A stretch of 64,000 nucleotides of DNA, from contig JAPKAM010000004.1 in the NCBI GenBank assembly GCA_028825265.1, forward strand, positions 333-64,332, read 5' to 3'. The notes under the pieces were generated by a model. The model had not been told where the DNA came from, searched no databases, and saw only the letters and a program-made list of their open reading frames with translations. The stretch is from Planctomycetota bacterium. Lineage in GTDB: Bacteria > Planctomycetota > UBA8108 > UBA1146. Shown piece after piece: positions 20,660 to 48,274 of this stretch (position 1 is the stretch's first letter; the number at the start of each line of letters is the position of its first letter). The translations under genes were made by a program, and so were the position numbers.

Positions 20660-23217
20660 GTGGCAGGATTCGCGTGAAGGACCTCGGTCGCAAGACTATC
20701 GTCAACATTTCAGATCAACCGATCACTGTCGGCCGGGACCCCGATTCCCGCATCGTGATCGGCGATCGAGCGGCTTCTCGTAAACATGGAGTGTTTAGTT
20801 GGGAAGGGAGTGACTTTGTCTATCAAGATCTCTCCTCATCCAATGGAAGTGTCCTGGCGGGAAAGAAGATCGATAAGGTGTCGCTGTCTCATGGAGACTG
20901 CATCTACATCGGAGATGCGGAGTTCCAATTGGAACTGTTGGACGGGGCCCCTCTCGATGACGAGACCGATCGAACGCCGATCGATGGTGTTGTTTCCTCA
21001 CGAGGGAACGATGCACCTACTGGCCCTGGCCTAGTTTATCAACATGAAGGTACCGATCAGTGGGTCCAGGCGGTCGGAAGGATCGTTGTCGGTCGCTCCG
21101 AGGAAGCCGATGTGACCCTAAATGACGGTCGAGTGTCATCCAAGCACGCCGTCATGCTCGAACAAGATGGATGCTGGTACATGGCCGATCTTGGCTCCGG
21201 AAACGGCATTGTGGTGGGACAAACAAAGGTCAAGAAACTTGAACTCACCGATGGTGTTCAGTTTCGAATTGGTTCCACGGAGTTCAAGGCGAGAGGCTTC
21301 TTGAACCGGGCACAACCCTCCAGGGATGGCGGGACAGCCGCTTCGATCTCGACTCGGTCTGTCGCGAATCGGGCTGTCTCGAATCGATCTTCTGCGAATC
21401 GGCCTGTCGCGAATCCAGCGGCGGAGATGACGGTGGGGCGAAGTACCCGGGTCGATGTCGGTTCGGAGGGTTCCCAGGGTCTCTTTACCATCGCCTTCAT
21501 CTTGGTACTGGGGGTGGTGCTCTACTCCGGTTACGGCTGGCTTCAAGACCTCGCGAGTAATCCTGACCTGGTGGTCCCGGAGGGGGATCGACTCTCCGGT
21601 GCTGGTCATTTTGAACTGGTTCCCCCTGGGCCGCTCGATGATGGTCCGTGGCGCTGGATCAGTGGTGAGGGTTCACTCGTTGTCGAGCGAGGGGAAGCGG
21701 CTCCCCACGGCCAGCAATGGCTCTCTTGTCGCGGCTCCTCCGATCCACGAGGTGTCATGCGACTCGAATATGACACCGTTTTCGAGGTGCAACAGGGACA
21801 AGGGTTACGCCTTAGTGCACGGCTCCAGAATACAGGATTCGATCGAATCGGACTGTCCGTCCGCTGGATTGAATCACGCGATGAGGGCGATCGAATTGTC
21901 GATGAGCAATTCTCTTCCTTGAAATCATCTTCCAACTGGAGTGGTCATGCTGCCGAGTTTGCCCCTCCGGTGGCGGGCAAGGGAGGTTCTGCAAGAGTCT
22001 CCGTGGTTGCATTGGGTCAAGGCAGAGAAATCCAGGTGGATCAAATGGTGATTCGCACAGTCGAAGCGCAGCGAGATCAACTGATTCATATCACCGCAGG
22101 AGATGCCGAACAGAAGATGGATCTTGCCATCGACGCCTCGGGAGTCGGCAAGTTGGTGCGCGGGCGGCAGGAGCTGATTTCAGATTTGCGGATCGCGATC
22201 GGTCCTCCAAGGAGCATGCCCTGGGGCCAACTTTTACCGATTCGCCGTGAGCAAATCGTCAGCGGCGATGATGGTTCCATCCGGCTTGGCTTCGAACTCG
22301 ATGAACAAGGACAAGGAAAAGTAGCGATTCAGCAGTTTGCCCGTTCGATCGGCTGGAAGATTGCTGCCAGTTGGACTCCGCAACGACCCACTCCGATGAT
22401 CCTGGTGGGAAGGGTGCCGATCCGAAGGGGTTCTTCACCGGTGCAAGTTTTTGCCGGCAGTAAATCCGTCGCAGTGGCGGATCGTTGGACCGATCTTGAG
22501 CCCTGTTCCGGGACAGAGATCTCGATTGGAATCGGTAACGATCAGATGGTTGCGACCTTTCAGCAGCCGATGATGTTCTCAGTGATCCCCGGTCAGGACG
22601 GTCGAGGTGCACTGTTGGTGGCCGATGCTGGAATCGTCATCGCTGGAGGTTCTCTCGATGTTTCATTCTCCGCCAGTAGCGAGCGCGAGCAATCCCGGGT
22701 GCTGGAGGCTCTCGCCGAGGTGAACCGAACGCTGGACGCGAGATCTGAGGGAGAGGCGGCTCAACTGATCCGACTGGCCCGAGCCGATTTCCCTTGGAGA
22801 GTGGACTTGGCCCGCAAACTGGACCTGATCGAAGAACGCATCGAGGTCGAAGTCGACGCTGCGCTGGGCCAGATCGCTGCCGTACTCGAAGATTCGAGGA
22901 AGTATCCAGGATCCTCAACCAGCATGTATTTGGAGAGAATTTGTCGCGAGGCGGTTGGTAGATTTGTCGGACTAGATCCCGCCCAGGAGTCGCAGCAGAT
23001 CCTGGATCAGCGCAAGAGTGCCAGTCAAAACGCAAATGACCGGATGGCCGTGGGGAAAGTCGAACTACTGCTGGCTCGTGGGCGATCCGCTCTAGGGAAA
23101 CATCGTTTCGAGATCGCTCGCTTCTACTTCCGCATGCTACTGGATCAGTATCCAGAATCTCCCGGTGCGGCGATCGCGGCTCAGGAATTAAAACTCATCA
23201 CTGCGAGGGGGGACTGA
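20656..23217 (+). CDS. Membrane protein with two N-terminal FHA domains and a large periplasmic domain
   Basis: FHA1 (ITVGRDPDSRIVIGD...SRKHGVF...SSNGSVLAG) and FHA2 (IVVGRSEEADVTLND...SSKHAVM...GSGNGIVVG). One TM helix (LFTIAFILVLGVVLYSGYGWL), then ~570 periplasmic aa. ATGA overlap with the upstream activator; the ORF track starts it earlier, at 20542. Confidence 0.65.
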   Translation: MSGRIRVKDLGRKTIVNISDQPITVGRDPDSRIVIGDRAASRKHGVFSWEGSDFVYQDLSSSNGSVLAGKKIDKVSLSHGDCIYIGDAEFQLELLDGAPLDDETDRTPIDGVVSSRGNDAPTGPGLVYQHEGTDQWVQAVGRIVVGRSEEADVTLNDGRVSSKHAVMLEQDGCWYMADLGSGNGIVVGQTKVKKLELTDGVQFRIGSTEFKARGFLNRAQPSRDGGTAASISTRSVANRAVSNRSSANRPVANPAAEMTVGRSTRVDVGSEGSQGLFTIAFILVLGVVLYSGYGWLQDLASNPDLVVPEGDRLSGAGHFELVPPGPLDDGPWRWISGEGSLVVERGEAAPHGQQWLSCRGSSDPRGVMRLEYDTVFEVQQGQGLRLSARLQNTGFDRIGLSVRWIESRDEGDRIVDEQFSSLKSSSNWSGHAAEFAPPVAGKGGSARVSVVALGQGREIQVDQMVIRTVEAQRDQLIHITAGDAEQKMDLAIDASGVGKLVRGRQELISDLRIAIGPPRSMPWGQLLPIRREQIVSGDDGSIRLGFELDEQGQGKVAIQQFARSIGWKIAASWTPQRPTPMILVGRVPIRRGSSPVQVFAGSKSVAVADRWTDLEPCSGTEISIGIGNDQMVATFQQPMMFSVIPGQDGRGALLVADAGIVIAGGSLDVSFSASSEREQSRVLEALAEVNRTLDARSEGEAAQLIRLARADFPWRVDLARKLDLIEERIEVEVDAALGQIAAVLEDSRKYPGSSTSMYLERICREAVGRFVGLDPAQESQQILDQRKSASQNANDRMAVGKVELLLARGRSALGKHRFEIARFYFRMLLDQYPESPGAAIAAQELKLITARGD

Positions 23218-24836
23218 TGGCTTACAAGGGACAGGTCACTGTTCTCGAGTTGAAGTCCCACCGCTGGCGTGCAGTCCATGTGCGTGGAATCGGGCATACC
23301 GTTGAGGTGGTCTCGGTTAACGAGGTGGAATCCCCCGCAGATGAAGACATCGGGGCATGGGTCAAGGAACTGACGACCAGAAAATTTCCGACCGGAAACA
23401 TTGTACTTCTGCTCGATGGAGAGAGTTCATCACTTCGCTACCATAGCGTGCCTCCGGTACCTTCCTGGCGGCTCGACCTGATCCTTCATTACGAGATCGA
23501 GGAGATCGCAGAAAAGACTGGTGATGCCCTCTCCGGGGGGCACATCGAACTGCTGGTTCCGGAGAGCCTATCCGAGGACACCTTGTTGCTGCTTGGGGTC
23601 GGGAAAGACTCGGTGATCCAGCCCCTCATCGACCAAATCCGGGAGGGCCATGGACAAGTGAAGTTGGCCTTGCCTTCTGCGATCGGAACTTTCCACGGAC
23701 ATCTCGCCAGTCACGGACCTGAGAGCGAAGATCAGACGGTCTTGCTGTGCGATGTGCAGGAGACTGAAACACAGGTGCTCGTGGTTCGGGAAAACCGATT
23801 ACTTTTTGCTCGAAGTGTCGGATTTGGTCTTCAAGGAATGGTCGATCTGGTCACCGAACGAACATCGGTTTCTGAAGCGAAAGCACGTCAGATGATCGCC
23901 GCATTCGTTTCGGGAGATCTGATCGATGGAGAAGAAGCGATGGTCGGCTGTCACCGCGGCTGGACCAGTCAGTTGGGGCAAATGCTCACGTCTTCTCTCT
24001 CCTTCTGTAAAGCTCAGCTGAAGATTGACGATGTCATCGCAGATCGAGTACTACTTTCGGGTATCGGAGCAGAGCTCGTAAGTCGATGCGATCAGCTCCG
24101 TCGATTGATGGATAAAGATCTAGAGGTGGTCTCCTTCGCGGGAACCGCTGGATCGCAGTGGACTCTGAATATAGGGACTGCAGCAGCAGCCCTCGATTCC
24201 GACGATCGAATTGTCGATCTGCTGCCCACTGCCGAGCGCAAGCGCAGAACGTTTCGAGACCACACACGCTTTTTGTGGGCCGGTGTTGCTGCGTTGGTTT
24301 TGGCCGTCGGATTGCAGGCGATGGATGTGTCTGTTTCTGCCGCACGCGCTACCGGTGCATCCCAAACGATTCGTCAGTGGCGCGGCGATATTTCCAACTG
24401 GCGGTCGGCAGAAGAAGATGCTCGAAAAAGTAACGATGTGTTCCGGAAAAGGGAGACCAGGATCATCCAGGAGATCGAGACGGGGAAGTTTTACTCGAAG
24501 ATCCTCGACCGACTTCGGCAGGATCTTCCCTCCGAAATCTCACTGGAGCAGATCAGCCTTCGCAGGGTTGTCGGCGATTCAGAGATCGGTATCGAGATCG
24601 AACTGATCGGCCAGGCGGACAATTCTCGACGTAATGGCCTCGAAGCCATCGAGACGTTGCAGGGTAACCTCGAGGGTATTCCTGGTGTTGAACGGGTTCG
24701 TTCCACACCTGAAGACCAGAAATCAGGCGCCTATCCATTCAGTATCTTGGTTTCTCCGGATGAAAAGTTGCCGGAGAAGAGTAACCGGGGTCCTGGCAAC
24801 CGTCGTAGGAAGTCACCGTTCGGGGGGAGAGGATGA
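23217..24836 (+). CDS. GspL-like / PilM-PilN fusion-like inner-membrane assembly protein
   Basis: Cytoplasmic actin-like segment (LLCDVQETETQVLVV...FARSVGFG...RVLLSGIGAEL), single TM helix (FLWAGVAALVLAVGLQAM) and a periplasmic coiled-coil domain. TGATG overlap with the upstream gene. Confidence 0.4.
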   Translation: MAYKGQVTVLELKSHRWRAVHVRGIGHTVEVVSVNEVESPADEDIGAWVKELTTRKFPTGNIVLLLDGESSSLRYHSVPPVPSWRLDLILHYEIEEIAEKTGDALSGGHIELLVPESLSEDTLLLLGVGKDSVIQPLIDQIREGHGQVKLALPSAIGTFHGHLASHGPESEDQTVLLCDVQETETQVLVVRENRLLFARSVGFGLQGMVDLVTERTSVSEAKARQMIAAFVSGDLIDGEEAMVGCHRGWTSQLGQMLTSSLSFCKAQLKIDDVIADRVLLSGIGAELVSRCDQLRRLMDKDLEVVSFAGTAGSQWTLNIGTAAAALDSDDRIVDLLPTAERKRRTFRDHTRFLWAGVAALVLAVGLQAMDVSVSAARATGASQTIRQWRGDISNWRSAEEDARKSNDVFRKRETRIIQEIETGKFYSKILDRLRQDLPSEISLEQISLRRVVGDSEIGIEIELIGQADNSRRNGLEAIETLQGNLEGIPGVERVRSTPEDQKSGAYPFSILVSPDEKLPEKSNRGPGNRRRKSPFGGRG

Positions 24837-25639
24837 TCCAGGAAATCTGGCAAAAAAACCGCAAGGTTTTGATTCAGGTGCTTTCAGCACTGGCGATTTT
24901 TCTGGTCGCTACTAATGTCACTAGCAGTTATCGAGCCGACCATGAAAAAAACCTGATTCGACATGAAGAGGACGCCCAACTGGTCGCACAGGATCTCGAG
25001 GGGCTCGAAGGTGTGGTCGATGTGGAGAGAAAATCTCGGACCGCCCTTGAGGATCGGAATCTGGATCTCCTTAAGAAACTGGGGATCTCTTTTTCAGCAA
25101 TTCATCAACCATCGGTGGATGAGGCATCTGTCAGTACTGATTTCAAGAGAGCCAAGGACCTGGTCTGGAACAACTTCAGGGACCAGGCCAATCGAGCTGG
25201 AATGGTGACTCCCGCCGAGATTCCGAATTTTGATGAGCGTTCTGATCTGTCATTGCTGGAATGGGCCGATCGGTATCGACTGCTGGAAGTTCTCGATCGA
25301 TTCACCAGGGTCTGCCTTCAAACCGGGGTTGCGCGCCTTGATGATGTGATCCCTGCGAAACGGCTGCAGGAGGCATTAGAAGATCCTAACAAGGTGCTCG
25401 CTCGTTATCCGCTCCACGTCAAGATGCTCTGCAAGCCCGAGCAATTGGTGGAGATGCTGCTTCGTTTTCAGCGCGACGGCGGATTCCTGTCACTAGAGCC
25501 GACAAGGGTGACCCAGGAAAAGTCCGGCGGTGAGAAAATCGAAGTGGATTTACTAGTTGTTGGAATTGACATGGAAGACCCTCGAGTCGACAGCGGCTCG
25601 ACTCGTCGGGGATCCGACCGTTCGAGGAGGGGATTCTGA
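24833..25639 (+). CDS. Bitopic membrane protein, GspM/PilO-like by architecture
   Basis: N-terminal TM helix (VLIQVLSALAIFLVATNV) plus a periplasmic domain. ATGA-coupled within the operon. Confidence 0.35.
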   Translation: MIQEIWQKNRKVLIQVLSALAIFLVATNVTSSYRADHEKNLIRHEEDAQLVAQDLEGLEGVVDVERKSRTALEDRNLDLLKKLGISFSAIHQPSVDEASVSTDFKRAKDLVWNNFRDQANRAGMVTPAEIPNFDERSDLSLLEWADRYRLLEVLDRFTRVCLQTGVARLDDVIPAKRLQEALEDPNKVLARYPLHVKMLCKPEQLVEMLLRFQRDGGFLSLEPTRVTQEKSGGEKIEVDLLVVGIDMEDPRVDSGSTRRGSDRSRRGF

Positions 25640-26025
25640 TGCGCTGGAACATCGAAAAGGGATTCTGTGTTATCTGCCTCGGGTTTTTACTCCTGAGTGT
25701 TCTGGGGCTAGCTAAAACCTACATCCTGGAAGATCCACTGGCGGGGGTCGATCTCAGGGTCCCTGAATCCAGTGATGGGGGAACTGTCGGAGGGCTGGTG
25801 AGGCTGGAGTGGTATGAACCGGCTCCCATAGAAATGGCCAGAAATCCATTCTCCAGTGTCAGCGAATGGAAAACTGCTCCAACAGATTTGTTGGGCGTGC
25901 CGCCCCTCAGTCCCGTACTACGCAGGGTACCGCTGCCGGCACTGGTGTCTGGCGACCCCAGGACCCGCCTTCGTGCCGAACTGGCGACTCCCGTAGCGGT
26001 CGAAGATGAGAAGGAGTCTCAATGA
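25639..26025 (+). CDS. Small bitopic membrane protein (GspC/PilP-like position)
   Basis: TM helix (FCVICLGFLLLSVLGLA) and a Pro-rich periplasmic tail. Translationally coupled at both ends. Confidence 0.3.
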   Translation: MRWNIEKGFCVICLGFLLLSVLGLAKTYILEDPLAGVDLRVPESSDGGTVGGLVRLEWYEPAPIEMARNPFSSVSEWKTAPTDLLGVPPLSPVLRRVPLPALVSGDPRTRLRAELATPVAVEDEKESQ

Positions 26026-28352
26026 CGAAGTGGTTCAGTTGCCTGCTCTTCATCGCCTTTCTACTGTTCCCACGGGCAGTTCTTGAAGGTCAAACGGCCA
26101 TCGATCTAGAGATCCGTGCCTACGATGTCATCGAATTGAATAATGGAAATCAGTTCGAGGGCAGGATCATCGCAGAGTTATCGAATTTGATTCAATTTGA
26201 AACTGCGGCGGGAAAAGTCACCTTCCCTCTTTCAGATGTCCGTAACATCTTCTACAGAAATCCTCCCGAAAAGGTCTACCAGACTCGGCTGCAGGATGGA
26301 TTTGATGAGTCTTCAGCTGCCGAGCAATTTGAAATCGGCAGATGGTGCCTGGATCCAGCAGTCGGACTGCTGGAGCAAGCCGTGAATCACCTGGAGATGG
26401 CCGTCCAACTCGATCCGACATCGGCGGCTCCTTACCAGCTGTTGATCCCCATCTACCAGCAAGACGATGCTCGCCAATTCCAGTCCACTGATCATGAAAT
26501 GACTGCCGATGTGGCGATGACGCAGACACTTCTGAAGGGTGTTCGTGCCAACATCGAGATCGAAGGTCTCTTCGAACTCACGGTCACCCAACTGATCCAG
26601 ATCGGCGAATCAGAAGCGGCCGTGTTGCTGTTGATGCGCCAGAGTGAAGGTGACGTCACGATTCCTTCCGTCGCGGCGGCGCTGAAAAAATTGGTGGTAC
26701 TTCTCGATGCACTGGGTCGTAGTGAAGAGTCGAGACAGGCCGCCAGTCGACTTCGCAAAGGCGGTGGTGGAAGCGATGTCGAGGTCTTGCAGCGAGAAAT
26801 TCGATGGGCGGTCCTCGACTATGCCGCTGGATCGCTGGATTCACGCGATGCGATCGAACAGTTGTTCGATGATCTGATCGCCGCGGGTGGTGCGGATGGG
26901 CAGAGTTATCTCTATCGTGGTACGGCTCGGTTACTCGACGATCAACTAGTACTGGCGCAAGACGACTTCAAGAAGGCTTTTCGGGCCGGAAGTGTCGATG
27001 CCATTGCTGCCACCACTTTTGCCCTCTCCTTCGCCAGGATGGGCGATTTCGACAAAGCACTAGGACTACTGGGGCCCGCTTCCGAGGGGGACCAGGTCAA
27101 CGTGGATTGGCGACTCGTGGAAGCCTACGTACTGGAATCTCAGGGAGAATCCAGGGCTGCGGTAGATCTCTATCAGGAGGCGACCGAGCAGGCTGAGGCC
27201 ACCTGGCAATCACGCCTGTTAAGCATCGAAGCGAGGCGGAGGCTAGATCCGAACTGGGATCCGACTTCGGATGTTGAAAAGGTCATGCGACACGACGTGC
27301 TGTCCTCCGCTGCTTTTGCCGAATGCGCACTGGTGCTGGGAGACCATGCTCTTTCACGAGGAAAACAGGCGGAAGCCAGACGTTGGTTGGAATACGCCGT
27401 TGCCAGTGGGCTCGACGGTTCTGATGTGATGCTTCGCCTCGGTCTCGCACAACGCGGACCGGGTGGTGATCCGAAGAGAGCGCGAGATGCACTGACTCTG
27501 GTGACGATAGATCAGCCAAAGAACCCCGACGGTTGGAATGCTCTGGCGGAGTTCCTCCATTCCAATGGTGAACTCGAAGACGCTCGTTTAGCCCTGCGGA
27601 AGTCGCTGGACCTGTTCCCTGAAAAGATGCGAGATAACTGGGCGCCCGATGCGCCGGCTCCTTTGCGCTGGGCACTGCGCGCTCAGCGACGAATCAATCG
27701 GACCCTTTCAGAAGAGTACTGGTACGATGATTTTGATCGAGCAAATGACTCTTCACTACAGAATAACTGGCGTGAAGAAGAAGCCTTTGGTGTCTCCGTT
27801 TCTCTCAAGGATGGCATGGCGATCATCGAAGGAGTCCAGAAACATCAACCGGACCGCTTGACCTCGATGAAACGTGAAATCCTGACTTCTCGTCTGACAG
27901 GATTTCGGTCGACACTTCGGTTATTGGCTGCTGGCACTGGCACGCGGATTGCATTTCGTGTGGAAGACCAATCGGGTGGTGGGCTGATCTTCTTCCGAGA
28001 TCCCGATGGTGTCCTTGGTTTCGCCCTTCTCGGGGGGAAAGAGATCAAGATGGTTCGCAGCGACGATGCCGAACAGGGGGAGGACTTTGGTTTGATTGAA
28101 ACCATCTGGTCGCCGGACGATCGTGCTCACCAGTTGGAAATCATTTTCACGCGGGAAGGCAAGGAGGGCGCCGAGTTGTGGTTTGACGGCATCCTTGTGG
28201 CGCGGGAAATTCCATATCGACCGGCCAGGAAGGCTGGCTTGACGGCTGGTTTTTCCGGTCAGGCTCCTCTCGATGAAAAATATCATCTGGCCATCGAGGA
28301 GTTCGAGGTGTTTCGCCGAAAGGCGGTCTCAATCAGGGAGCAGGAGTACTAG
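26022..28352 (+). CDS. Secreted TPR-repeat protein with C-terminal beta-rich domain
   Basis: Signal peptide (WFSCLLFIAFLLFPRAVLEG), multiple TPR-like helical repeats and a ~200-aa non-TPR C-terminal domain. Coupled within the operon. Confidence 0.5.
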   Translation: MTKWFSCLLFIAFLLFPRAVLEGQTAIDLEIRAYDVIELNNGNQFEGRIIAELSNLIQFETAAGKVTFPLSDVRNIFYRNPPEKVYQTRLQDGFDESSAAEQFEIGRWCLDPAVGLLEQAVNHLEMAVQLDPTSAAPYQLLIPIYQQDDARQFQSTDHEMTADVAMTQTLLKGVRANIEIEGLFELTVTQLIQIGESEAAVLLLMRQSEGDVTIPSVAAALKKLVVLLDALGRSEESRQAASRLRKGGGGSDVEVLQREIRWAVLDYAAGSLDSRDAIEQLFDDLIAAGGADGQSYLYRGTARLLDDQLVLAQDDFKKAFRAGSVDAIAATTFALSFARMGDFDKALGLLGPASEGDQVNVDWRLVEAYVLESQGESRAAVDLYQEATEQAEATWQSRLLSIEARRRLDPNWDPTSDVEKVMRHDVLSSAAFAECALVLGDHALSRGKQAEARRWLEYAVASGLDGSDVMLRLGLAQRGPGGDPKRARDALTLVTIDQPKNPDGWNALAEFLHSNGELEDARLALRKSLDLFPEKMRDNWAPDAPAPLRWALRAQRRINRTLSEEYWYDDFDRANDSSLQNNWREEEAFGVSVSLKDGMAIIEGVQKHQPDRLTSMKREILTSRLTGFRSTLRLLAAGTGTRIAFRVEDQSGGGLIFFRDPDGVLGFALLGGKEIKMVRSDDAEQGEDFGLIETIWSPDDRAHQLEIIFTREGKEGAELWFDGILVAREIPYRPARKAGLTAGFSGQAPLDEKYHLAIEEFEVFRRKAVSIREQEY

Positions 28353-28994
28353 ATGAACCCTTCACCACGAGCCGGATTCACCCTGGTCGAACTACTGGTG
28401 GTGATTGCCATCATCGGCGTTTTGGCTGGACTGGGTTCGAAGATGCTGAGCTTTGCCACCAAGAGCAGTGCCATCGGCCTGGCCGAACAGGAGATGCAAC
28501 GATTGGTGCTGGGCGTGGAAACCTATCAACTCGATTTCGGCGATTTCCCACCCAGTTCGATGGAGCAAGAGTACGAGATCTCCGGCAATGGTCTAGACGA
28601 GGGAAACGAGAGTTTGGTGGCCCATCTCGCCAGTCGCTCGAGAGGCCGGAGTTACTTCGAGTTCAAGGAGGAGTTTCTCGAGAATCTCGATGATGATCGT
28701 ATCGGTGATGCAGATCTCTATCAGCAGATGCGCTGGGTTTTCGGCGATGAACAACTGAGAGAATACGTAGATCCCTGGGGAGTTCCTTACGTCTACATTC
28801 ACAATAGAGATTACGGCATCGATTACTCTGTGACTCAAGAATCAGGCCCGATCAAGATCCACGCAGGGAATTCTCGTAAAACTGCGACCTATCATGAACC
28901 ACTTCGTTTCCAGATATGGTCAGCGGGGCCGGATGGTATTCACCAGATCGATGTCGATGATCCGGATGCCTCGGATGACGTGGCGCCATGGTGA
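28353..28994 (+). CDS. gspG: Major pseudopilin, GspG-like (type II secretion / type IV pilin-like)
   Basis: Class III signal RAG|FTLVELLVVIAIIGVLAGL with Glu+5, GspG 'DPWGVPYVY' motif, and C-terminal SAGPDG (cf. GspG GADG). 213 aa against a canonical ~145. Confidence 0.7.
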   Translation: MNPSPRAGFTLVELLVVIAIIGVLAGLGSKMLSFATKSSAIGLAEQEMQRLVLGVETYQLDFGDFPPSSMEQEYEISGNGLDEGNESLVAHLASRSRGRSYFEFKEEFLENLDDDRIGDADLYQQMRWVFGDEQLREYVDPWGVPYVYIHNRDYGIDYSVTQESGPIKIHAGNSRKTATYHEPLRFQIWSAGPDGIHQIDVDDPDASDDVAPW

Positions 28995-30376
28995 GAAGAA
29001 GTTTCGATTCGAATCACGGCGTGACCTTGATCGAGCTCCTGGTGGTGCTTTCGATCCTGTCGGTCATGCTCGGAATGTCGATGTCCGTTTTTCGGTCCTT
29101 CGGCGAGGCCCAGACGCTGGAGATCGCTTCCAGCAGCATCTCTACGACGGTCAGAGCTGCGCGGAACTGGTCGATCTCATCCGGGATGCAGAGCCGGATT
29201 CTGGTCGATCCAGAGCATCGTAAAGTGACCGCCTTCGGATTTCAATTGGCGGGTGCCTGGGGTTTCGAGGATTTTTACGGCCTTCCTGAAAAGCAGTTAT
29301 TGCCGCCGGGATCGGTGACCCTCGGTGCCTATCGCCAGCCAGCAGAACTGGTCGGCCAGGTGGAACCCTGTGCCGGATCGATCGGTCGAGGGGCGATGTT
29401 CGTCAACGATGGTGCCGCATTTCGTGCTCGTCGCCTGGCCAGTTACGAGGGTCGTAATGGGGTTTCCATCGAAGCGTGGGTTCATTTCTGGAAGCCGCCC
29501 TGGCGTCCAGAAGATGGAATTGAGCCGGATGGGGGCTTTTCCGATCCGCGGCGGGAGATGCGCATGGCCGTGCTTGGCATTCCCGATTCATTCGAGATGG
29601 GAATCCTCGGCGATGGCGCCGTTTACATGCAGATCGGTGATCCGCAGAGGGCCATCGATGGGCAATACATCCGCGCCCAGACGGAGGGATCTGCGGTCCT
29701 TGCGGATCGATGGGTACACCTGAGAGCCACTTTTGATTGTACCGAACTGATTCTCGAGGTGGACGGCGTCGAGCAGGCTTGGATTCCTGAGGGCTTCGAA
29801 ATGATCGAACAGTGGCCGCCATTACCCACTGCAATCCCTCACAGCGATTCCGATCTGTGGATTAGTCATCCCAATCGATTTTTCATGGGAGCCATCGATC
29901 AGGTGGTCCTGAGGGTGGCAACGACACCAGAGATCGTCGAATTGCCCATCGATATCGAACTGTTGGGTCCCACGACGCTGATTTATCTCGACAGCCGAGG
30001 GGCTCTCGATCCGTTGCTGCACAATTTCCCTGTGGTGATTCACGTGGCGGAGGTCGGAGATTTTTCTGAAATTGAAGCCGCAGATGGAACTGCAGTTGCA
30101 AAAGAAGGATTCAGGGATCGCATCGAACGAGAGCGACAGGAACAGGCGGCTAGAGACGGTGAGATCGTCCAGGCATTTGGCGATCCCATCTCGGATCTGA
30201 TGAAGCATCTGGAAGGCTGGGAAACCGATCCAGATGCTCTCATCGAAGAGGAAGAAGAGAAGAACCCGGTGCCATTGACTCCAGGAATGCACTACGGAAT
30301 TGGCGATGTGGATGGAACATCAGTGCTTCGTCTTCATAACATCGTGATTGATATGACGGGAGCTATTCGTGGTTAA
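28988..30376 (+). CDS. Large pseudopilin-like protein (GspH-like position)
   Basis: Prepilin N-terminus NHG|VTLIELLVVLSIL with Glu+5. 462 aa. Confidence 0.5.
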   Translation: MVRRSFDSNHGVTLIELLVVLSILSVMLGMSMSVFRSFGEAQTLEIASSSISTTVRAARNWSISSGMQSRILVDPEHRKVTAFGFQLAGAWGFEDFYGLPEKQLLPPGSVTLGAYRQPAELVGQVEPCAGSIGRGAMFVNDGAAFRARRLASYEGRNGVSIEAWVHFWKPPWRPEDGIEPDGGFSDPRREMRMAVLGIPDSFEMGILGDGAVYMQIGDPQRAIDGQYIRAQTEGSAVLADRWVHLRATFDCTELILEVDGVEQAWIPEGFEMIEQWPPLPTAIPHSDSDLWISHPNRFFMGAIDQVVLRVATTPEIVELPIDIELLGPTTLIYLDSRGALDPLLHNFPVVIHVAEVGDFSEIEAADGTAVAKEGFRDRIERERQEQAARDGEIVQAFGDPISDLMKHLEGWETDPDALIEEEEEKNPVPLTPGMHYGIGDVDGTSVLRLHNIVIDMTGAIRG

Positions 30377-33300
30377 GCCAGAGAGAAATCTTGAACGAGG
30401 AATGGCCTTGTTGATGGTCATCCTGGTGCTCTCCGCGCTGGCAGCGATCGGTACTCCGTTTGTGATTTCGATGAAACTTCAAGAAAGAGGTGCCGCTCGG
30501 GCAATCGCACAGCAGCACGCACAACTCGCTGCGCAAAGTGCCAGAGGACATGCTCTTAGCCGATTGTTCGATACTCATCATAGTCGAGAACGAGATCGCT
30601 GGCGCCCCGGAGTGGAGGCTCCTGACTTGGTCGATGGACTGGACGAATTGAAAGTCGACTTTCCTGGTGTGATCACAACTGTACCTGTGGTCGGTACACC
30701 TCCGGAGGATTTTCAAATTCGAGGTAATTCTCAGGTGATCCTCGATGCTCGCGTGACTGACGAGCAGGGCAAGATCAACATCAACTCTGCGATGCCTAAT
30801 CTCATGGGCAACTTGTTGGCCGGGAGTCATCTGTCCGAAGCGATCAGCTATGAAACGGATCTGGGAGAGTTGCCACTCGACGACACCTCTTCTTTTCCCG
30901 CGGATGATGATCCGGAGACGATTGATGGTGTCGTCGTGATCCTCAATCCGATCTTCTTCACTGTCGAGGCGATTTCATACACTGGAAAAACTGAAACAGC
31001 GTTGACCGGGATCTTCAGGGGACAATACCTGTCGGGGACATGGGAGCACCAGAAAGGTTGGCCAGTCTTCGACCTTCGTGGGTTGAAGGTCTTCTTGCAT
31101 CGGCTCGCCAATCTCTCTGACGGTGAAATCGCGACCTTCCGTACTCCGATTGGAATCCGTCAGATTGCCGATTGGTCGGTGGTTCCCTATTTCCTCAAGA
31201 CCCTGGCAGTGGTGGGGCTCAATTTCAAGAACATGGCGGAATGGGGTCTGACCACAGAGATGCTGGTGCGTGCGGGGATCGATCCATCCTTGCTCCAGGG
31301 GGATACAGAACAAGTGGATGAAGCGGAATATCGTAAAGCACGAAAGATGTTTCTCGATAATAACATCCCCAAGGATGTGGTCGATCTGGTCGAGTCGATT
31401 CGTGGAAAAGCTGCGGTGATCGAAGCGGCTGAGGTGGTCGCGGGCTTTGGTCTGACCAAGGCCAGGGGGAATGCATTCAAGGGTGTCTATCTGACCTTCA
31501 TCGCACCGGAGCTGAAGAAGATCAAGAAGAGGGGCAAGAGTTATTTCCCCAGCGCCATCCTCGCTTACCAGGAAATTTTTGATCTCCCCGGAATGGAAAC
31601 CTTTTCAGCTTTTGAGTTTGAGCAAATCCGCGACCTGATCACGACCACCTCGACCCAGCCGAGGGCATGGTCGCAGGAACAGATGGTCGAGGGAGAGATC
31701 ACCGATAGTGCGCTACTCGGAGTCCCGCAGATGCGTCTGCCACGGTATGACTTCTTCAATCCTGGAACTGTGGTGAGAATCCGCAGCATCGATGATCCCT
31801 CGAAGGTTGAATATGGACTCGCTGCGGGGGCTTTCCCGACTCCTCGGGGAGGATTCCGGGGATTGGGAGCTGGCTCCATCTTTCAGGGCGGTGTGATTCT
31901 CAAGGAACCCTTGAAATATCAGTGGGGCGAGCGCGAGGCGATGGTTAGTGCCGCACTTCGGCATCCGGTCAACATCAATACCGCCCCTCGTAGGGTCCTC
32001 GAAGCGGTCTTGACCGGGCTCTCCACCGATCGGTTCGAGGCACGATTCAACGGAGTGACCGTCGAAGAAGCGCGTGGATTGACCGACCTCCTGATGGAAG
32101 CGATGCCGATTTCTGGTTTCGCCGCTTTGCGGGAGGTGGTGGAAGCCGCTCAGATGAGTGGCGTCCTCGATGGCGGTGATTCCGAAGCGATTCTCATTAA
32201 CGCACTGAACCCAAATCAGCCACGACTCTCCATCTCCACCACGGGATTTTGTTACGCCACTTCTGAGATCTACACCGTTGAATCGACCGGAGTGGCCAGG
32301 AGCCCGGTGGGTACTCCTCAAGCGACGGTTCGCCTTCGTGAGGTGATCGAGGTTGCACCTCCGGATCCGCTTTCGCTAAGGCTGGAAACGCAGGAGGACT
32401 GGTCTTCCATCTTTCTCACACGTAATTCGAGCGGTGGGATGTTCTCTCGATTCAACACGACTTTCGTCCCCGGTCGGGCGTCGAACCTGGTGATCAGTGG
32501 TCCGATCCCTCTCAACCGTCGCAAGTTCACCGGGCCTTCTCTCGATGAAGGAACTCTTCGTGGAGCGACCATCTCGTATGATCGAGATTCAGGGAACTAC
32601 GGTTTCGGCTCGGTCGGCTTGCTGGATGTCGAGCACTTTAGCGAAACCATCGAGGGGTATGAACTGGAAGACGGTTCCTGGAAGCGATCGATTCTCCTCC
32701 AGCAAGAAACCGAACCGACTCGGGGCCGAGGACGCAGGGGGGCGGCGCCTGATCCCCAAGTTTTGGATCAAAATTCGACTGAAGACGCCCTTTCGACCAT
32801 CCCTGCGATGATTGATTTCTGGTACCGCCCGCGCTGGGGCTCGCGAAGTGGAAACCGAATTATCTTCGATACCGTGGGCCCGACCCTGGATCGATATCGT
32901 GATCGTGTGCGATTGTTCTTCTCCGGGGATACACAGGAACTGGTGCTGCAGGTCTTTGATGAGACCGGATCTGCAGTGGCGTGGGATACCAATGTTCTAC
33001 CTGCGGCAGAGGTTCGGCACTCGGTCACGACCATCAACTTTGCAGATGACACCTGGTATCACATCTCTGCGGGATGGAGATCGACGAGGCCTGGAGATCT
33101 GGTGCTGATGATCGATCGTCGGCCGGTCGGTCGTCAGTCCTGGTTGTCACGCCTCAATGGTGCGCTTTCATTCTCGGGCAATCGTGTTTCCATCGTCGAT
33201 GGTGACATGGCGACCCGGTTCCCCCCGATGGGCACCTTGCTGGTGGGTTCTGAAGCGATCGATTACTCGGGTCGGGAAGGGGCTGCCTTCATCGTCAGGT

Positions 33301-36092
33301 CACCAGGGCTCAACGGCTCTCCTCCGATCGGGCGCGGAGTTCGTGGGACGGTTCGGTCGAGCCATGCTGCGGGCACTCCTGTAAGGCTTCTGGGGTATTC
33401 ATTGCCCATCGCCAATTCTGATCCACGACGCGGACTGGCCGATTCCTCCAGTGACATCATCATCGGTCCTGGTGGGGCATCTCTGGAGATTGAGATCACT
33501 CCGACGATGAGGGTTGCGGCCTTCAACACCGGTACAGGTGCAGTGGAATTGACGCCTGCGACATTTTCACGTGCCTCGACCCAGATCCCCTTCTCTGCCG
33601 GAAGTCCCGTGACCAGTACCCTGGAATTGGAGCCGTTTGCGGCCACTTCGTCTTCCTTGCTGGTTCAGACCAACGGAAGCCATCCTCTGGAACTGGGTTT
33701 TCCGCCGCGAGGATATCTTCATATCCAACAGTGGACCCAGCAGGGGATCGAAAGGGCGCAATTGGTGGCGTCTGAATTCGCCAAGTACTCCTCCATCACT
33801 CCGGGACCGATCCCTGGCCTCTATCGCTTCACCGCCATGGGTAGAGCGCTGCTAAACTCGACGGCGACCCAGGGTGTCATCACGGCCACCTCCACAACCA
33901 CCCTGCAGGTCAGGGGTGTTTCTATCGAGTCGAATGCGACCGATTTGAATCTGAGTTATGCACCTTCCGGTGTGATTCAGATCGATTACATGCCTGGCTC
34001 GCAGAGTCTCGGGCTGCTCCAGGATGCCGAATGGATTCGATACACGCAGATCGCCGAGGGCAAGTTCTTCATCTGTGATCCGGATCAGGTCGAGGCCTTT
34101 CGTGGCTTCACCGGGGACCAGTACATCAACACCAGTGATCCATTCCGTCGTAATCGGCCACTGTGGGATATGAATGGCATCGTGCGCCATGCTGCCGGAC
34201 AGGAGATCACTCAGGTGGTCCGCGCGGTCGGGGCCTCTGCTGGATTTGGTGACGAAGTGATCCTCGGGGATGGCTATGGCGATCCGACTACCCGGCTGCG
34301 AGAAGAAACGCCGCTGAGAGTTCGCAAGGTCCGCGAAACCGACAGTGGCACCTATGTCAGCTTTTACTGGCCTCCTGAGGGAATCTATCGGCCGGGACAG
34401 GATCCACGAATCCGTCGTTTCCCCAGTGGTGGTTTACCTTCTTCATCCAACGGGGAGATTCGCTTCGGGTCATCGATGATCAGCGGCGATGGGATCGATG
34501 CACCGGGGACCCTGGACGAGGTTCGTTTTAGTCGCCTCGACTCGAGTGACGTCGACACCTATGCATTTCCCGCCGCTTCCAATGGTGGGTTCCGGACGAT
34601 GCCGATCCAGGCTTCGCCGGGATTGCCGTCGGGGGTTCGAACCGAGGTGCTGCGTAGCGGATACACGGAACAGGATTCTGAACAGCCGGGCGGAGTGCTC
34701 GACAAGATTCACTTGTTGGCTCGTTCAAAACTCACCGCTTCCGCTGTGACGCCACCGGAAGGTGCCACTGATTTCACTGCAGGATCGGTTCGATCCTTTT
34801 CAGTCGGCGATCCTCGAGGATTTGGGCTGGGAAAACGAGAAGGATTGTTTCAGGTCGATGATGAGGTGATGCATTACACCTTTGACCCCGGCTCGGTCGA
34901 GGCCTCGGTGGTGATCCAGTTGGAGCAGGATCTTCCGCGCGATCCTTACCTGGATGAAGATGCGCTCGGTGAAGGGGAGGTGGTTCCCTATGACCCCAAC
35001 CGAGACCTGAGAGTGGAAGTGGTCAACATTGTCCGGGTCAACAACACCGCCAACCTACCTCCCAACGGCGGATTCCTTGAGATGATCTCCGGACCCACCA
35101 ACGAAGTGCTCTACTACCAGCAAGCTTCGAACGGGGTGCTACGCAATGTGCTGCGCGGCCAGCTCGGATCATCGGTGGGTGGGTATGTTTATCAGTGGTC
35201 CTACACCGACGCCGCCGGTGCTGTTCAAGTTGTGACCAATACCCACCAATTGCGGTTGATCCCCAGTCGTACCATCGATGTGATGACCCGAGGAATGCTC
35301 ACCACGGAACGTGCTAGCAATGAGTTGGGACACGAACCTCTGGTTCCGCTCCCCAGTATCCCAGTGGCACGGCTCGCCGGGCAGGTCGCTGAATCGGGTT
35401 TGACGCTGGAGGTGATGGGACTTCCCGGAAACGAAGGTGAGAATCGCCAGCTGCTGGGATTCCCTTCCGGCGAGGGATATCTGCTGGTGGATGACGGAAT
35501 CGTCTCGACACCCGACGAGATCATCGCTCACACCGGAGCGCAGGGCGGTAGCTTTGGACTGTTCCGTGACGATCGCACTGGCAAGGGAATTTTCCGCGGT
35601 CGCTTCGGCACCGATTTTAAGGTCCATGCCGCGGGTACCCCTGTCATCGAACTTCTGGCTCGACATCACGATCGTTATCAGCCGCTGGTGGAATCGAAGG
35701 ATCTCCAGTATCTCGAGCGGGCCTGGACGATGCCAGGAACGATGTGGGACCGCATCAGTTGGGCTGTGGAACAGTCTCGAAACCGTTCCACCGCCGGAAC
35801 CGTACGAATACTCGCCCGTTTTGATGGCATCCCTGGTTGGGATTCCACTCCGACCAATGCACCGGGTGGGCTCTATCTGTTCGACGATCCAGATGACGCG
35901 AATCGACTGGGGAGATTTGGTGATGCGATTGAAATTCGGATTCACTATCGTCACCGAAAAGGAGCCTTTGGCCTGACGCGTCAGTCGGGGATCTGGAATG
36001 ACGAATGGAAACATCTTCCCATCTTGAAAAGCGTAGCGATCGAGCACCGCAAGGAGTGGCGTATCTTGCATCACGAGGAATACCCGTATTGA
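30369..36092 (+). CDS. Giant GspK-like minor pseudopilin (1907 aa)
   Basis: GTG start. GspK-type N-terminus RG|MALLMVILVLSALAAIG lacking Glu+5, as in GspK. GspK family motif HPVNINTAPRRVLEAVLTGLS, followed by >1500 aa of extra sequence. Confidence 0.5.
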   Translation: MVKPERNLERGMALLMVILVLSALAAIGTPFVISMKLQERGAARAIAQQHAQLAAQSARGHALSRLFDTHHSRERDRWRPGVEAPDLVDGLDELKVDFPGVITTVPVVGTPPEDFQIRGNSQVILDARVTDEQGKININSAMPNLMGNLLAGSHLSEAISYETDLGELPLDDTSSFPADDDPETIDGVVVILNPIFFTVEAISYTGKTETALTGIFRGQYLSGTWEHQKGWPVFDLRGLKVFLHRLANLSDGEIATFRTPIGIRQIADWSVVPYFLKTLAVVGLNFKNMAEWGLTTEMLVRAGIDPSLLQGDTEQVDEAEYRKARKMFLDNNIPKDVVDLVESIRGKAAVIEAAEVVAGFGLTKARGNAFKGVYLTFIAPELKKIKKRGKSYFPSAILAYQEIFDLPGMETFSAFEFEQIRDLITTTSTQPRAWSQEQMVEGEITDSALLGVPQMRLPRYDFFNPGTVVRIRSIDDPSKVEYGLAAGAFPTPRGGFRGLGAGSIFQGGVILKEPLKYQWGEREAMVSAALRHPVNINTAPRRVLEAVLTGLSTDRFEARFNGVTVEEARGLTDLLMEAMPISGFAALREVVEAAQMSGVLDGGDSEAILINALNPNQPRLSISTTGFCYATSEIYTVESTGVARSPVGTPQATVRLREVIEVAPPDPLSLRLETQEDWSSIFLTRNSSGGMFSRFNTTFVPGRASNLVISGPIPLNRRKFTGPSLDEGTLRGATISYDRDSGNYGFGSVGLLDVEHFSETIEGYELEDGSWKRSILLQQETEPTRGRGRRGAAPDPQVLDQNSTEDALSTIPAMIDFWYRPRWGSRSGNRIIFDTVGPTLDRYRDRVRLFFSGDTQELVLQVFDETGSAVAWDTNVLPAAEVRHSVTTINFADDTWYHISAGWRSTRPGDLVLMIDRRPVGRQSWLSRLNGALSFSGNRVSIVDGDMATRFPPMGTLLVGSEAIDYSGREGAAFIVRSPGLNGSPPIGRGVRGTVRSSHAAGTPVRLLGYSLPIANSDPRRGLADSSSDIIIGPGGASLEIEITPTMRVAAFNTGTGAVELTPATFSRASTQIPFSAGSPVTSTLELEPFAATSSSLLVQTNGSHPLELGFPPRGYLHIQQWTQQGIERAQLVASEFAKYSSITPGPIPGLYRFTAMGRALLNSTATQGVITATSTTTLQVRGVSIESNATDLNLSYAPSGVIQIDYMPGSQSLGLLQDAEWIRYTQIAEGKFFICDPDQVEAFRGFTGDQYINTSDPFRRNRPLWDMNGIVRHAAGQEITQVVRAVGASAGFGDEVILGDGYGDPTTRLREETPLRVRKVRETDSGTYVSFYWPPEGIYRPGQDPRIRRFPSGGLPSSSNGEIRFGSSMISGDGIDAPGTLDEVRFSRLDSSDVDTYAFPAASNGGFRTMPIQASPGLPSGVRTEVLRSGYTEQDSEQPGGVLDKIHLLARSKLTASAVTPPEGATDFTAGSVRSFSVGDPRGFGLGKREGLFQVDDEVMHYTFDPGSVEASVVIQLEQDLPRDPYLDEDALGEGEVVPYDPNRDLRVEVVNIVRVNNTANLPPNGGFLEMISGPTNEVLYYQQASNGVLRNVLRGQLGSSVGGYVYQWSYTDAAGAVQVVTNTHQLRLIPSRTIDVMTRGMLTTERASNELGHEPLVPLPSIPVARLAGQVAESGLTLEVMGLPGNEGENRQLLGFPSGEGYLLVDDGIVSTPDEIIAHTGAQGGSFGLFRDDRTGKGIFRGRFGTDFKVHAAGTPVIELLARHHDRYQPLVESKDLQYLERAWTMPGTMWDRISWAVEQSRNRSTAGTVRILARFDGIPGWDSTPTNAPGGLYLFDDPDDANRLGRFGDAIEIRIHYRHRKGAFGLTRQSGIWNDEWKHLPILKSVAIEHRKEWRILHHEEYPY

Positions 36093-37174: not shown

Positions 37175-37596
37175 AAGTGCAGCACAAAGAATCAGGATTC
37201 ACCTTGCTCGAGGTGGTCGTGGCTCTCGGAATCCTGACGGTCGGAGTCAGTGCTGCCATCTCCCTGTTCGCCGCAGGTACCGCTTCGCATCGGCGTGCGG
37301 TCGATCGGATCCGGGCCATCGAGGTCTCGGAAGTGGTCCTCTCCGCCCTCGAAGGGACGATTCGCGACGGAGCAACGGTGACCGATTTGATCCAGAATCC
37401 ACCGTGGCAACCATTGATCTCTCGGTGGCCTGGAATCTCAGTGGAGGTGCGTTATGGCACCGTTCCCAAGGTAGACTTCACCGATGAGCTGCTGGTCGAG
37501 ATTCATGTGCAGTGGATCTCTCGCGGGCTCGATAGTGAGGAAGTGTTTCGACAGATCGTTCCGAGGATGAGAAGTATCCGATTGGATGCGCCCTGA
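37171..37596 (+). CDS. Small pseudopilin (GspI-like)
   Basis: SG|FTLLEVVVALGILTVGVSAAISLF with Glu+5. 141 aa. ATGA overlap. Confidence 0.6.
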   Translation: MKVQHKESGFTLLEVVVALGILTVGVSAAISLFAAGTASHRRAVDRIRAIEVSEVVLSALEGTIRDGATVTDLIQNPPWQPLISRWPGISVEVRYGTVPKVDFTDELLVEIHVQWISRGLDSEEVFRQIVPRMRSIRLDAP

Positions 37597-38995: not shown

Positions 38996-39095
38996 GGCCC
39001 GTTTGTGCGGGTCTGATTCCAACCTGGATGGCTCCGGTGTACGCACAGTGCGTGACTCCGGCATCCAGCACTCCGAGCAGAGAGGTGAGGTCCCG

Positions 39096-40463: not shown

Positions 40464-40504
40464 AACTTACAACCTGCCCATCCCCGTTCGAGAGAGGAAA
40501 CTTC

Positions 40505-48242: not shown

Positions 48243-48274
48243 GGGCCTATCTGGGAGTGGTAGGGATCGCACTG

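Follow-up and report, generated by a model that had tools for sequence, protein, structure and literature searches.

The question raised by this locus is whether a run of unusually large prepilin-like genes, found in an uncultured marine Planctomycetota lineage, encodes a genuine set of pseudopilins and, if so, what kind of structure such a set would build. Throughout the window (the whole 64-kb stretch of DNA that was analyzed), only five open reading frames (ORFs) carry a class III signal. They are referred to here as G, H, K, J, and I.

Organization and conservation of the locus

The five pilin genes follow each other in the order G-H-K-J-I on the plus strand, between positions 28353 and 37596. 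Successive genes overlap by 7, 8, 1, and 4 nt, indicating tight coupling. The full block starts with a sigma-54 activator, continues with an FHA protein, a PilM-PilN fusion, two small membrane proteins, and a TPR protein, and ends with the pilin genes (Table 1). Its collinearity extends to about 20 independent metagenome-assembled genome loci of Planctomycetota, in which the identity to G declines from 88% to approximately 30%. The window has the order H-K-J-I, as does each related locus that extends far enough to reveal it, and subunit sizes as well as gene order are kept over this deep divergence. The ORF coupling, family size, and collinearity are far beyond chance, and the pilin genes together with those upstream form a conserved operon-like block. 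The initial annotation had reported genes for proteins of 213 and 462 aa at 28353 to 30376, an order of G-H-K-J-I rather than G-H-I-J-K, and I-like (141 aa) and J-like (360 aa) genes located after a giant K. Both ORFs proved to be exact and represent conserved prepilin-type genes, the order was borne out by the collinear loci, and the coordinates confirm the placement of I and J.

Table 1. Genes of the conserved block, with coordinates in the window and the basis of each assignment
Feature	Length (aa)	Coordinates	Strand	Basis
FHA-GAF-sigma-54 activator-HTH regulator	714	18515..20659	+	Pfam; first gene of conserved block
Double-FHA membrane protein		20656..23217	+	Pfam FHA 7e-29, two stretches, plus Yop-YscD_cpl; position conserved
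PilM-PilN-type fusion	539	23217..24836	+	Family profile versus solved PilM
Bitopic membrane protein	268	24833..25639	+	PilO/GspM-like position; position conserved; N-terminal hydrophobic segment (from sequence)
Small membrane protein	128	25639..26025	+	Conserved in closer loci
Secreted TPR protein	776	26022..28352	+	Directly upstream of G; position conserved
G, GspG-type major (pseudo)pilin	213	28353..28994	+	N_methyl, hhalign, fold matches
H, modular H-type minor pilin	462	28988..30376	+	N_methyl, Laminin_G_3, GspH, fold
K, K-type minor pilin (GTG start)	1,907	30369..36092	+	GspK profile, xNxN motifs, no Glu+5
J-like minor pilin	360	36092..37174	+	N_methyl; Verru_Chthon C/GspJ/GspI matches
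I-like minor pilin	141	37171..37596	+	PilV/GspI profiles

The regulator at the head of the block keeps its collinear position relative to the pilin genes in related loci and matches FHA, GAF, Sigma54_activat (E = 3e-72), and HTH_8, all above the Pfam cutoff. The mechanical ORF of the double-FHA gene begins at 20542; its likely start is the ATG at 20656, which overlaps the stop of the regulator gene. In the 539-aa fusion, a transmembrane segment connects the actin-like PilM domain, which is cytoplasmic, with a periplasmic part. Its family profile matched solved PilM structures from Myxococcus (E = 6e-29, residues 1 to 328), Thermus (6e-24), and Pseudomonas (4e-16), and GspL at an E value of only 0.7. 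The window protein alone scored 13.6 bits against PF11104 (cutoff, 27), and its residues 319 to 440 weakly matched the NCBIfam model of the Amuc_1101 PilM-like family. Judged by these profiles, an actin-like PilM domain is present in the fusion. The 268-aa protein had no match in Pfam, NCBIfam, or PDB, and its gene position suggests a putative PilO/GspM-like role. The 128-aa protein had no family match in Pfam or NCBIfam. In the 776-aa protein, TPR_16 (2e-13) and other Pfam TPR models were detected, as were weak PilW/PrsT-type TPR matches.

A possible sigma-54 promoter was considered 415 nt upstream of G, where positions 27938 to 27953 contain an exact −24/−12 consensus (TGGCACGCGGATTGCA). The consensus is missing in 20 related loci, and variation at the aligned site tracks codon wobble within the TPR gene; the match was therefore treated as chance.

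A gene for an assembly ATPase, platform protein, secretin, or prepilin peptidase was found neither in the 64-kb window nor in the flanks (up to 10 kb) of 27 related loci. A tblastn search of the window and these 27 loci with the E. coli gspC/D/E/F/L/M/O proteins returned no credible match (a few had E values of 0.35 to 0.85), and the called neighbors of related loci contained no gspC/D/E/F/L/M/O-type Pfam families. The absence of these four components from the surveyed sequence counts against the filament model presented below.

Assignment of the five pilin-type proteins

The N terminus of G (MNPSPRAG/FTLVELLVV) has Gly−1, Phe+1, and Glu+5 and matches N_methyl at 1.6e-8, as is characteristic of a class III signal. 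Residues 140 to 151 read DPWGVPYVYIHN, and residues 186 to 195 (FQIWSAGPDG) are followed by a DD..W tail. When the 89-member G family was aligned by hhalign to GspG of E. coli K-12, the match spanned residues 1 to 145 with a probability of 99.8% (E = 2e-28). The curated cutoffs were not reached, with 42.1 bits against TIGR01710 (cutoff, 88.85) and 20.4 bits against PF08334 (cutoff, 21), and these matches span only residues 8 to 68 and 37 to 68, respectively. For the AlphaFold2 model of G (pLDDT of 89.8), the top 11 Foldseek matches were all GspG/EpsG/PulG, most with probabilities of 0.87 to 0.99 (range, 0.63 to 0.99) and a target-normalized TM score of about 0.6. By its profile and fold matches, G is a true but divergent GspG homologue.

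Compared to the 145-aa GspG of E. coli K-12, the alignment places extra residues in G at 68 to 79, 113 to 137, and 153 to 182, with 7 more in the C-terminal loop, approximately 74 in total. The three larger insertions are kept across the 89 family members, whereas the 7-aa insertion in the C-terminal (Ca) loop is local; N111, D113, D115, E137, D140, and P145 are invariant or nearly so. The family comprises 620 database matches, and its 191 clusters at 50% identity with E values of ≤1e-10 are nearly all 200 to 230 aa long. The C-terminal motif SAGPDG...DD..W aligns with the loop of PulG, with S190 and G192 invariant and D208 and D209 found in at least 90% of members. By motif, it is a candidate Ca2+-binding loop. 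One distant homologue of G, P0041, carries PF07596.

H matches N_methyl at 9e-7. Its helix alpha1 and first strands (residues ~14 to 91) are followed by a ConA/LamG-like sandwich (~95 to 356), a low-confidence acidic linker (357 to 430) that is variable in the family, and a conserved terminal hairpin (433 to 454; ...IVIDxTGxIRG). This C-terminal motif is retained even in relatives of 340 aa. Laminin_G_3 was matched by residues 158 to 308 at 2.7e-5 (24.8 bits; cutoff, 27.6), and the AlphaFold2 model (pLDDT of 80) retrieved arabinanase domain 4, botulinum Hc, and PL7 lyases in Foldseek, with E values down to 3e-7. GspH was the best specific NCBIfam model in all 22 H members, whereas hhalign of the H family against the single E. 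coli GspH did not discriminate it from other pilins. H is best described as an H-type minor pilin that owes its size to a ConA/LamG-like beta-sandwich. It fits the definition of a modular pilin, since it combines a class III signal with a domain that is not specific to pilus biology (Laminin_G_3/ConA-like fold). With the linker and conserved hairpin coming after it, the sandwich looks inserted rather than appended.

The signal of K (G/MALLM) lacks Glu+5. Position +5 is M, V, A, or L in the window protein and in 22 of 22 K sequences from related loci, and it is E in G, H, J, and I. GspK was the only specific family in all 15 K members searched (best E value, 1.5e-15). In the window protein, residues 9 to 141 matched the NF037980 GspK model with 40 to 44 bits (cutoff, 130) and residues 534 to 555 matched PF03934. 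Two GspK-type xNxN motifs are present, KININSA at 135 to 141 (ININ at 136) and PVNINTA at 533 to 539 (VNIN at 534). The hhalign match of K to GspK shrank to the N terminus on realignment. Profile searches of PDB with H and K retrieved only the N-terminal helix or a marginal match to XcpX (E = 1). In Pfam, no LamG match was obtained for K of the window, whereas K homologues carry PF13385. From these matches and motifs, K is best described as a GspK-type pilin without Glu+5, of about 200 kDa and with an extension of roughly 1,300 residues.

The J-like gene starts at an internal ATG (36092); its mechanical ORF from 36005 yields 389 aa and is 29 codons too long. N_methyl, found in 13 of 13 members, is the sole Pfam match for J. 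Matches within the family were divided between Verru_Chthon C (10/13; 6e-6), GspJ (9/13; 3e-5), and GspI (11/13), and hhalign gave probabilities of 95.7% for GspJ and 91.8% for GspI, covering the N-terminal part only. A conserved C-terminal motif of about 50 aa in the J-like pilin recurs in K. The I family is matched by PilV (11/11; best, 6e-9), GspI (11/11; 4e-8), and XpsI (10/11), and its alignment comprises alpha1 and a short conserved strand region. J is thus only weakly resolved from I in these comparisons and, because the two are not cleanly separated, the letters K-J-I rest partly on size.

It should be noted that all specific pilin-family matches of the five proteins are below curated cutoffs and mostly N terminal. 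With this caveat, profile searches favor the proposed letters G, H, K, and I. The models TIGR01710, PF08334, NF037980, and TIGR01708 miss the pilin genes of this lineage, which are at present labeled [quoted passage not shown] or "hypothetical." The possibility that the proteins are generic DUF1559-type prepilins was rejected, as none of the five matched PF07596 (DUF1559) or H-X9-DG (TIGR04294) at an E value of ≤0.1. Most of what the initial annotation had said of the subunits was upheld. The prepilin cleavage site, Glu+5, the PWG(V)PY(V)Y-type motif, and SAGPDG are all present in G; its approximately 70 extra residues correspond to the three conserved insertions and the short local one; and H, at 462 aa, is about three times as long as the 169-aa GspH of E. 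coli K-12. Its G/H/J/I-type assignments, as opposed to generic DUF1559 proteins, agree with the lack of DUF1559 matches. As for the individual letters, those of G (hhalign), H (22/22), and I (11/11) were supported, whereas J is weakly set apart from I.

Proposed filament model and alternative explanations

We consider it likely that the locus encodes the pilins and the alignment subcomplex of a type IV filament that is specific to this lineage and whose tip bears lectin-type modules. Processing of G and its polymerization into a fiber would depend on components encoded outside the locus, namely, a prepilin peptidase, an assembly ATPase, and a platform protein. The insertions of G, located in the alpha-beta loop and the beta-sheet, would face outward, since those regions are outward facing in solved GspG pseudopili, and would thereby thicken and decorate the fiber surface. 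A priming tip complex would consist of I, J, K, and H, with K placed on top because it is without Glu+5. At this tip, the lectin-type module of H and the extension of K would serve in binding, with glycans or particles as the most plausible targets, and the FHA/sigma-54 regulator may control expression. Published precedents exist for modular pilins that contribute lectin modules to a tip complex and for a tip-located K without Glu5 (PMC8179133, PMC9934059). The initial annotation had proposed that domain inflation and reordering point to a lineage-specific fiber with a decorated surface. As regards decoration, this is a fair reading only for the insertions of G; H, and K in homologues, are inflated by lectin-type modules, a known design of modular pilins that would be expected at the tip of a fiber and not along its surface. 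An extracellular adhesive or capture fiber is preferred over a periplasmic secretion piston because K is so large. A more far-reaching version, in which an undescribed class of thickened, GspG-derived capture fiber with a tip of ~200-kDa multi-module K and lectin-type H harvests polysaccharides or particles outside the cell, is speculative and rather unlikely. If true, it could provide a molecular identity for planctomycetal surface fibers, for which a link to macromolecule uptake has tentatively been made, and one of its subunits would be the largest of the pilin type described to date.

A classical type II secretion (T2SS) pseudopilus, i.e., a short periplasmic piston for folded exoproteins acting via a secretin, with enlarged subunits and a shuffled gene order, would agree with G being specifically GspG-like and not type IVa-pilin-like and with the best family names of H, K, and I, which are T2SS pseudopilins. 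The alignment protein, however, is of the PilM type (6e-29) and not GspL (0.7), and no GspC/D/E/F/L/M was found in or near any locus. In addition, a ~200-kDa K and a 50-kDa lectin-bearing H would be hard to fit in the secretin vestibule, and lectin-type modules of pilins are reported to function in adhesion (PMC9934059). Taken together, a secretion piston seems unlikely to us. It is somewhat less probable still that no fiber is formed and that the pilin-like N termini just anchor a membrane or periplasmic lectin complex, e.g., for polysaccharide capture or uptake, a situation that may also apply to many solitary prepilin-like proteins of planctomycetes. Glu+5 is present in G, H, J, and I and lost just in K in every locus, a pattern that fits filament packing, and a full H/I/J/K-type set lies beside a GspG-type subunit and a PilM-PilN protein. 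The window pilins also lack DUF1559 and H-X9-DG matches, although PF07596 does occur in the distant homologue P0041. Planctomycetota genomes contain many orphan prepilin-like genes, which, like the lack of an adjacent assembly ATPase, platform, and peptidase, would be in line with a mere anchoring role. That the 213- and 462-aa ORFs are fused or mis-started is highly improbable. Apart from the overlong mechanical ORF of the J-like gene, nothing was found in favor of such an artifact. Lengths are stable across many independent assemblies (206 to 239 aa for G and 340 to 464 aa for H), and the inserted segments show sequence conservation and are folded with high confidence in the models. These data on length and insertion conservation refute it.

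Comparison with known systems

Literature searches yielded no description of this pilin cluster. Pilin-like sets of the PVC superphylum include the Verru_Chthon cassette A to D (TIGR02600/02598/02599/02596), for which a literature search found no publication, and the Amuc_1101 family of Akkermansia (NF045709). Matches to the cassette were weak but consistent, with D for H in 22/22 members, C for J in 10/13, B for I in 6/11, and A for K in 1/15. With scores far below the cutoffs, such as 22.4 bits for H against TIGR02596 (cutoff, 70) and 15.4 bits for I against TIGR02598 (cutoff, 51.4), the block is a relative and not a member.

Like GspG/PulG/EpsG of the T2SS (TIGR01710, PF08334; PDB 3FU1, 3G20, 5WDA), G combines a class III signal and Glu+5 with a long alpha1, followed by G(D)YP, GxESLV, DPWGxPY, and SxGPDG...DD..W. 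It differs from them in being ~70 residues longer, where the added parts include an N-x-D-x-D segment that hardly varies and an additional beta-hairpin, and in its setting: G is not beside gspC-F/L-O, and its partner protein is of the PilM and not the GspL type. As in the H-I-J-K tip sets (GspH/I/J/K; FimU/PilV/PilW/PilX), the major subunit gene is followed by a run of four minor pilin genes, K alone is without Glu+5, and the best specific matches are to H, K, and I types. Instead of the canonical H-I-J-K order, the block has H-K-J-I, with products of 462, 1,907, 360, and 141 aa, whereas the E. coli K-12 counterparts measure 169, 327, 195, and 125 aa.

The closest parallel for H is found in the modular pilins of Streptococcus sanguinis, PilC (ConA-like lectin) and PilB (vWA), in that a pilin part is likewise joined to a ConA/LamG-type module. 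The combination of N_methyl and PF13385 is one of the architectures that modular pilins often have, with carbohydrate binding as its predicted function (Raynaud et al. 2021, PMC8179133), and modular pilins have been proposed to sit in the tip complex (PMC9934059). In H, however, the sandwich leads into an acidic linker of variable sequence and then into the conserved hairpin at the terminus, K is more than twice as long as the 860-residue extreme of the modular-pilin survey (PMC8179133), and, in contrast to S. sanguinis, the host is a diderm planctomycete with a GspG-type major subunit. H residues ~95 to 356, the extension of K, and the N-x-D-x-D segment of G are concrete targets for studying the contact of Planctomycetota with glycans or particles. 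What is new here is the extreme to which two known principles (modular pilins and the tip complex of H, I, J, and K) are taken in an abundant uncultured marine lineage: the K-type pilin reaches 1,907 residues, and the major subunit carries three conserved insertions.

The pilin gene run

The two ORFs flagged as enlarged pseudopilins in the initial annotation, G and H (lettered, like K, J, and I, after the T2SS pseudopilins), had been placed exactly, and they are members of a run of tightly coupled plus-strand genes (see the table). A six-frame motif scan of the 64-kb window yielded exactly five ORFs with a class-III (prepilin-type N-terminal) signal, namely, G, H, K, J, and I. The reservation that these might be generic DUF1559 proteins was not borne out: none of the five matched a DUF1559 or H-X9-DG model in Pfam and NCBIfam.

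Coordinates of the gene run and of other features in the window
Feature	Position	Strand	Remark
FHA-GAF-sigma-54 activator	18515-20659	+	
Double-FHA membrane protein	20656-23217	+	
539-aa protein	23217-24836	+	PilM-PilN-type fusion
268-aa protein	24833-25639	+	
128-aa protein	25639-26025	+	
TPR protein	26022-28352	+	776 aa
TGGCACGCGGATTGCA	27938-27953	+	sigma-54 -24/-12 consensus; inside TPR gene, 415 nt upstream of G start codon
G	28353-28994	+	213 aa
H	28988-30376	+	462 aa
K	30369-36092	+	1,907 aa
J	36092-37174	+	360 aa from internal ATG; mechanical ORF from 36005, 389 aa
I	37171-37596	+	141 aa
Secreted-looking protein	39003-40463	+	no Pfam match
Secreted-looking protein	40445-41776	+	NHL/Vgb-lyase-type beta-propeller, 2e-15
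GH113 glycoside hydrolase	47142-48329	-	3e-38
HEAT-repeat/VWA protein	48412-50202	+	

The order from the activator to I was collinear in about 20 independent Planctomycetota metagenome-assembled genome (MAG) loci, among which the identity of G ranged from 88% down to about 30%. Sizes across these loci were 340 to 464 aa for H, 1,750 to 2,070 aa for K, 354 to 434 aa for J, and 141 to 204 aa for I. The K-J-I order pointed out in the initial annotation is inverted and conserved across related loci; we attach no mechanism to it. The same cluster, at about 72% identity, occurs in records labeled "Bacillota bacterium MAG 7" (locus L013, QNYK01000100.1) and "Roseibacillus sp." (protein P0008), likely owing to mis-binning or a wrong taxonomic label. 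The only exact match to the sigma-54 consensus in the window, TGGCACGCGGATTGCA, was absent from 20 related loci, where variation at the aligned site tracked codon wobble; as a promoter it was rejected, and the match is probably due to chance.

In the window, I is followed by holA on the opposite strand. In the most distant loci, two extra same-strand genes without Pfam matches (534/564 aa and 331 aa; L005 18669-20273 and L006 18821-20515), absent from the window, follow the I-like gene. Downstream of holA lie two adjacent secreted-looking proteins, both of which end, by eye, in Asp-rich paired dockerin-like repeats; the glycoside hydrolase and the HEAT-repeat/VWA protein are located about 10 kb downstream of the pilin block.

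Enlargement of G and H

The N-terminal methylation motif of G was recognized by both Pfam and NCBIfam. Its best specific family was GspG, yet under the curated cutoffs and over the N-terminal helix only (TIGR01710, 42 bits against 88.85; PF08334, 20.4 against 21). A profile of the G family (89 members) aligned to E. coli K-12 GspG, whose sequence was taken from an annotated record, over its full length with 99.8% probability (hhalign, E = 2e-28), whereas GspH, I, J, and K matched it at the helix only. The same profile matched solved PulG (E = 1.7e-16), with a second stretch, FQlWSaGPDG..DDI, aligned to the PulG C-terminal loop. The AlphaFold model of G was confident (pLDDT 89.8), and its best eleven PDB matches were all GspG/EpsG/PulG, most with a probability of 0.87 to 0.99 (range, 0.63 to 0.99) and a TM score of about 0.6 normalized on the target.

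Alignment to E. coli GspG, a check of the kind proposed in the initial annotation, located the extra residues at 68-79, at 113-137, where they include a helix, and at 153-182, where they form an additional beta-hairpin. A fourth, acidic insertion of 7 residues in the C-terminal loop is common to the closest relatives only. The insertions are conserved in sequence: N111, D113, D115, E137, and P145 each occur in 90% or more of the members, and D140 and Y148 do not vary. The family returned 620 matches in the 90% database, and its size class is stable, since 191 clusters at 50% identity (E ≤ 1e-10) matched end to end and were almost all 200 to 230 aa long. On the basis of profile, PulG, fold, insertion conservation, and size class, G genuinely belongs to the GspG superfamily, within a distinct enlarged subfamily. 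The nearly invariant N-x-D-x-D segment (residues 111-115), which opens the second insertion, might be a second metal site.

The sequence of H matches an NCBI protein recorded for a "Planctomycetota bacterium" MAG at 100% identity, and H belongs to a well-conserved family of 28 clusters. It carries the methylation motif and a Pfam Laminin_G_3 match over 158-308, just short of the cutoff. In its model (pLDDT 80), alpha1 (14-65) and three strands (69-91) are followed by a large sandwich, which ends near residue 356. An acidic/helical stretch of low confidence (357-430) comes next, and then a terminal hairpin that is modeled confidently (433-454). Foldseek returned only ConA/LamG-type sandwiches (E down to 3e-7), including arabinanase AbnA domain 4, botulinum toxin Hc, PL7 alginate lyases, and a trans-sialidase lectin domain. 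Because the terminal motif ..IVIDxTGxIRG persists in 340-aa relatives without the linker, the sandwich seems to interrupt the pilin module instead of being attached to its end. As to pilin type, GspH was the best specific NCBIfam model in 22 of 22 members (best, 4e-9). Next came Verru_Chthon D (22/22), XpsH (21/22), and ComGD (16/22), and every one of these matches, GspH included, was under the cutoff; hhalign of the family against the single E. coli GspH did not discriminate pilin type.

Other pilins and neighboring genes

The sole specific family for K was GspK (NF037980), matching 15/15 members, with the best match (1.5e-15) covering approximately residues 9-141, and PF03934 touches residues 534-555. 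K has counterparts, ININ at 136 and VNIN at 534, of both xNxN motifs found in E. coli GspK (FNLN at 104 and INLN at 216). Glu+5, the glutamate at position 5 after the cleavage site, is present in G, H, J, and I and missing from K at every locus; its absence is a recognized hallmark of the tip subunit (PMC9934059). I was matched by PilV and GspI in 11/11 members each. The letters of the initial annotation proved essentially right, with J the least certain among K, I, and J: it matched Verru_Chthon C (10/13 members), GspJ (9/13), and GspI (11/13), only N_methyl in Pfam, and, over the helix alone, GspJ at 95.7% and GspI at 91.8% (hhalign). A conserved C-terminal motif of about 50 residues in J, EWIxV...RGxRGTxAxxHxxGxxV (residues 296-344; window 36977-37123), recurs two to three times in K (987-1005, 1219-1237, and 1742-1760; hmmsearch full-sequence E = 5e-9), which suggests a small domain in both proteins.

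The 539-aa protein matched solved Myxococcus PilM with an E value of 6e-29 over residues 1-328, against 0.7 for GspL. Its PilM-type actin-like domain is followed first by a membrane segment and then by a periplasmic part, and the protein is a PilM-PilN-type fusion in one chain. A further, weak match, to the Akkermansia Amuc_1101 "PilM-like pilus complex" family, hints that the machine layout may be common to the PVC superphylum. For the 268- and 128-aa proteins, Pfam and NCBIfam detected no relatives of known function, and a PDB profile search with the former gave no match. Homologues of GspD, E, F, and O were found neither in the window nor within 10 kb in 27 related loci, and the corresponding Pfam families were absent among the called neighbors. 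The remainder of the pilus machine must either lie at other loci or be missing.

A probable lineage-specific filament with a giant pilin

What the initial annotation described as systematic inflation can be traced to two separate causes. In G, the alpha-beta loop and the sheet together carry three conserved insertions. These regions face outward in solved GspG pseudopili, so a thicker, decorated fiber surface is a reasonable inference by analogy. In H and in K homologues, several of which contain PF13385, enlargement reflects added lectin-type modules, a known modular-pilin design. N_methyl plus PF13385, with a predicted carbohydrate-binding role, is among the commonest modular-pilin architectures (PMC8179133); a lectin-type module of this kind in S. 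sanguinis binds glycans from a tip complex (PMC9934059).

Given the insertions in G and the lectin-type modules in H and K homologues, we read the block, from activator to I, as putatively encoding the pilin set and the alignment subcomplex of a type IV filament specific to this lineage. Such a filament would combine a major subunit of T2SS type with a PilM of T4aP type and would end in a bulky, lectin-bearing tip. That the block instead encodes a periplasmic secretion piston is unlikely in view of the ~200-kDa K.

Our literature search found no paper describing this cluster, and database names of its proteins are generic. Because every part has homology to a known kind, the block represents no new category. 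Its single most unusual feature is not within the flagged G and H coordinates: the K-type pilin, at 1,907 residues, is more than twice as long as the 860-residue extreme of the 2021 modular-pilin survey (PMC8179133).
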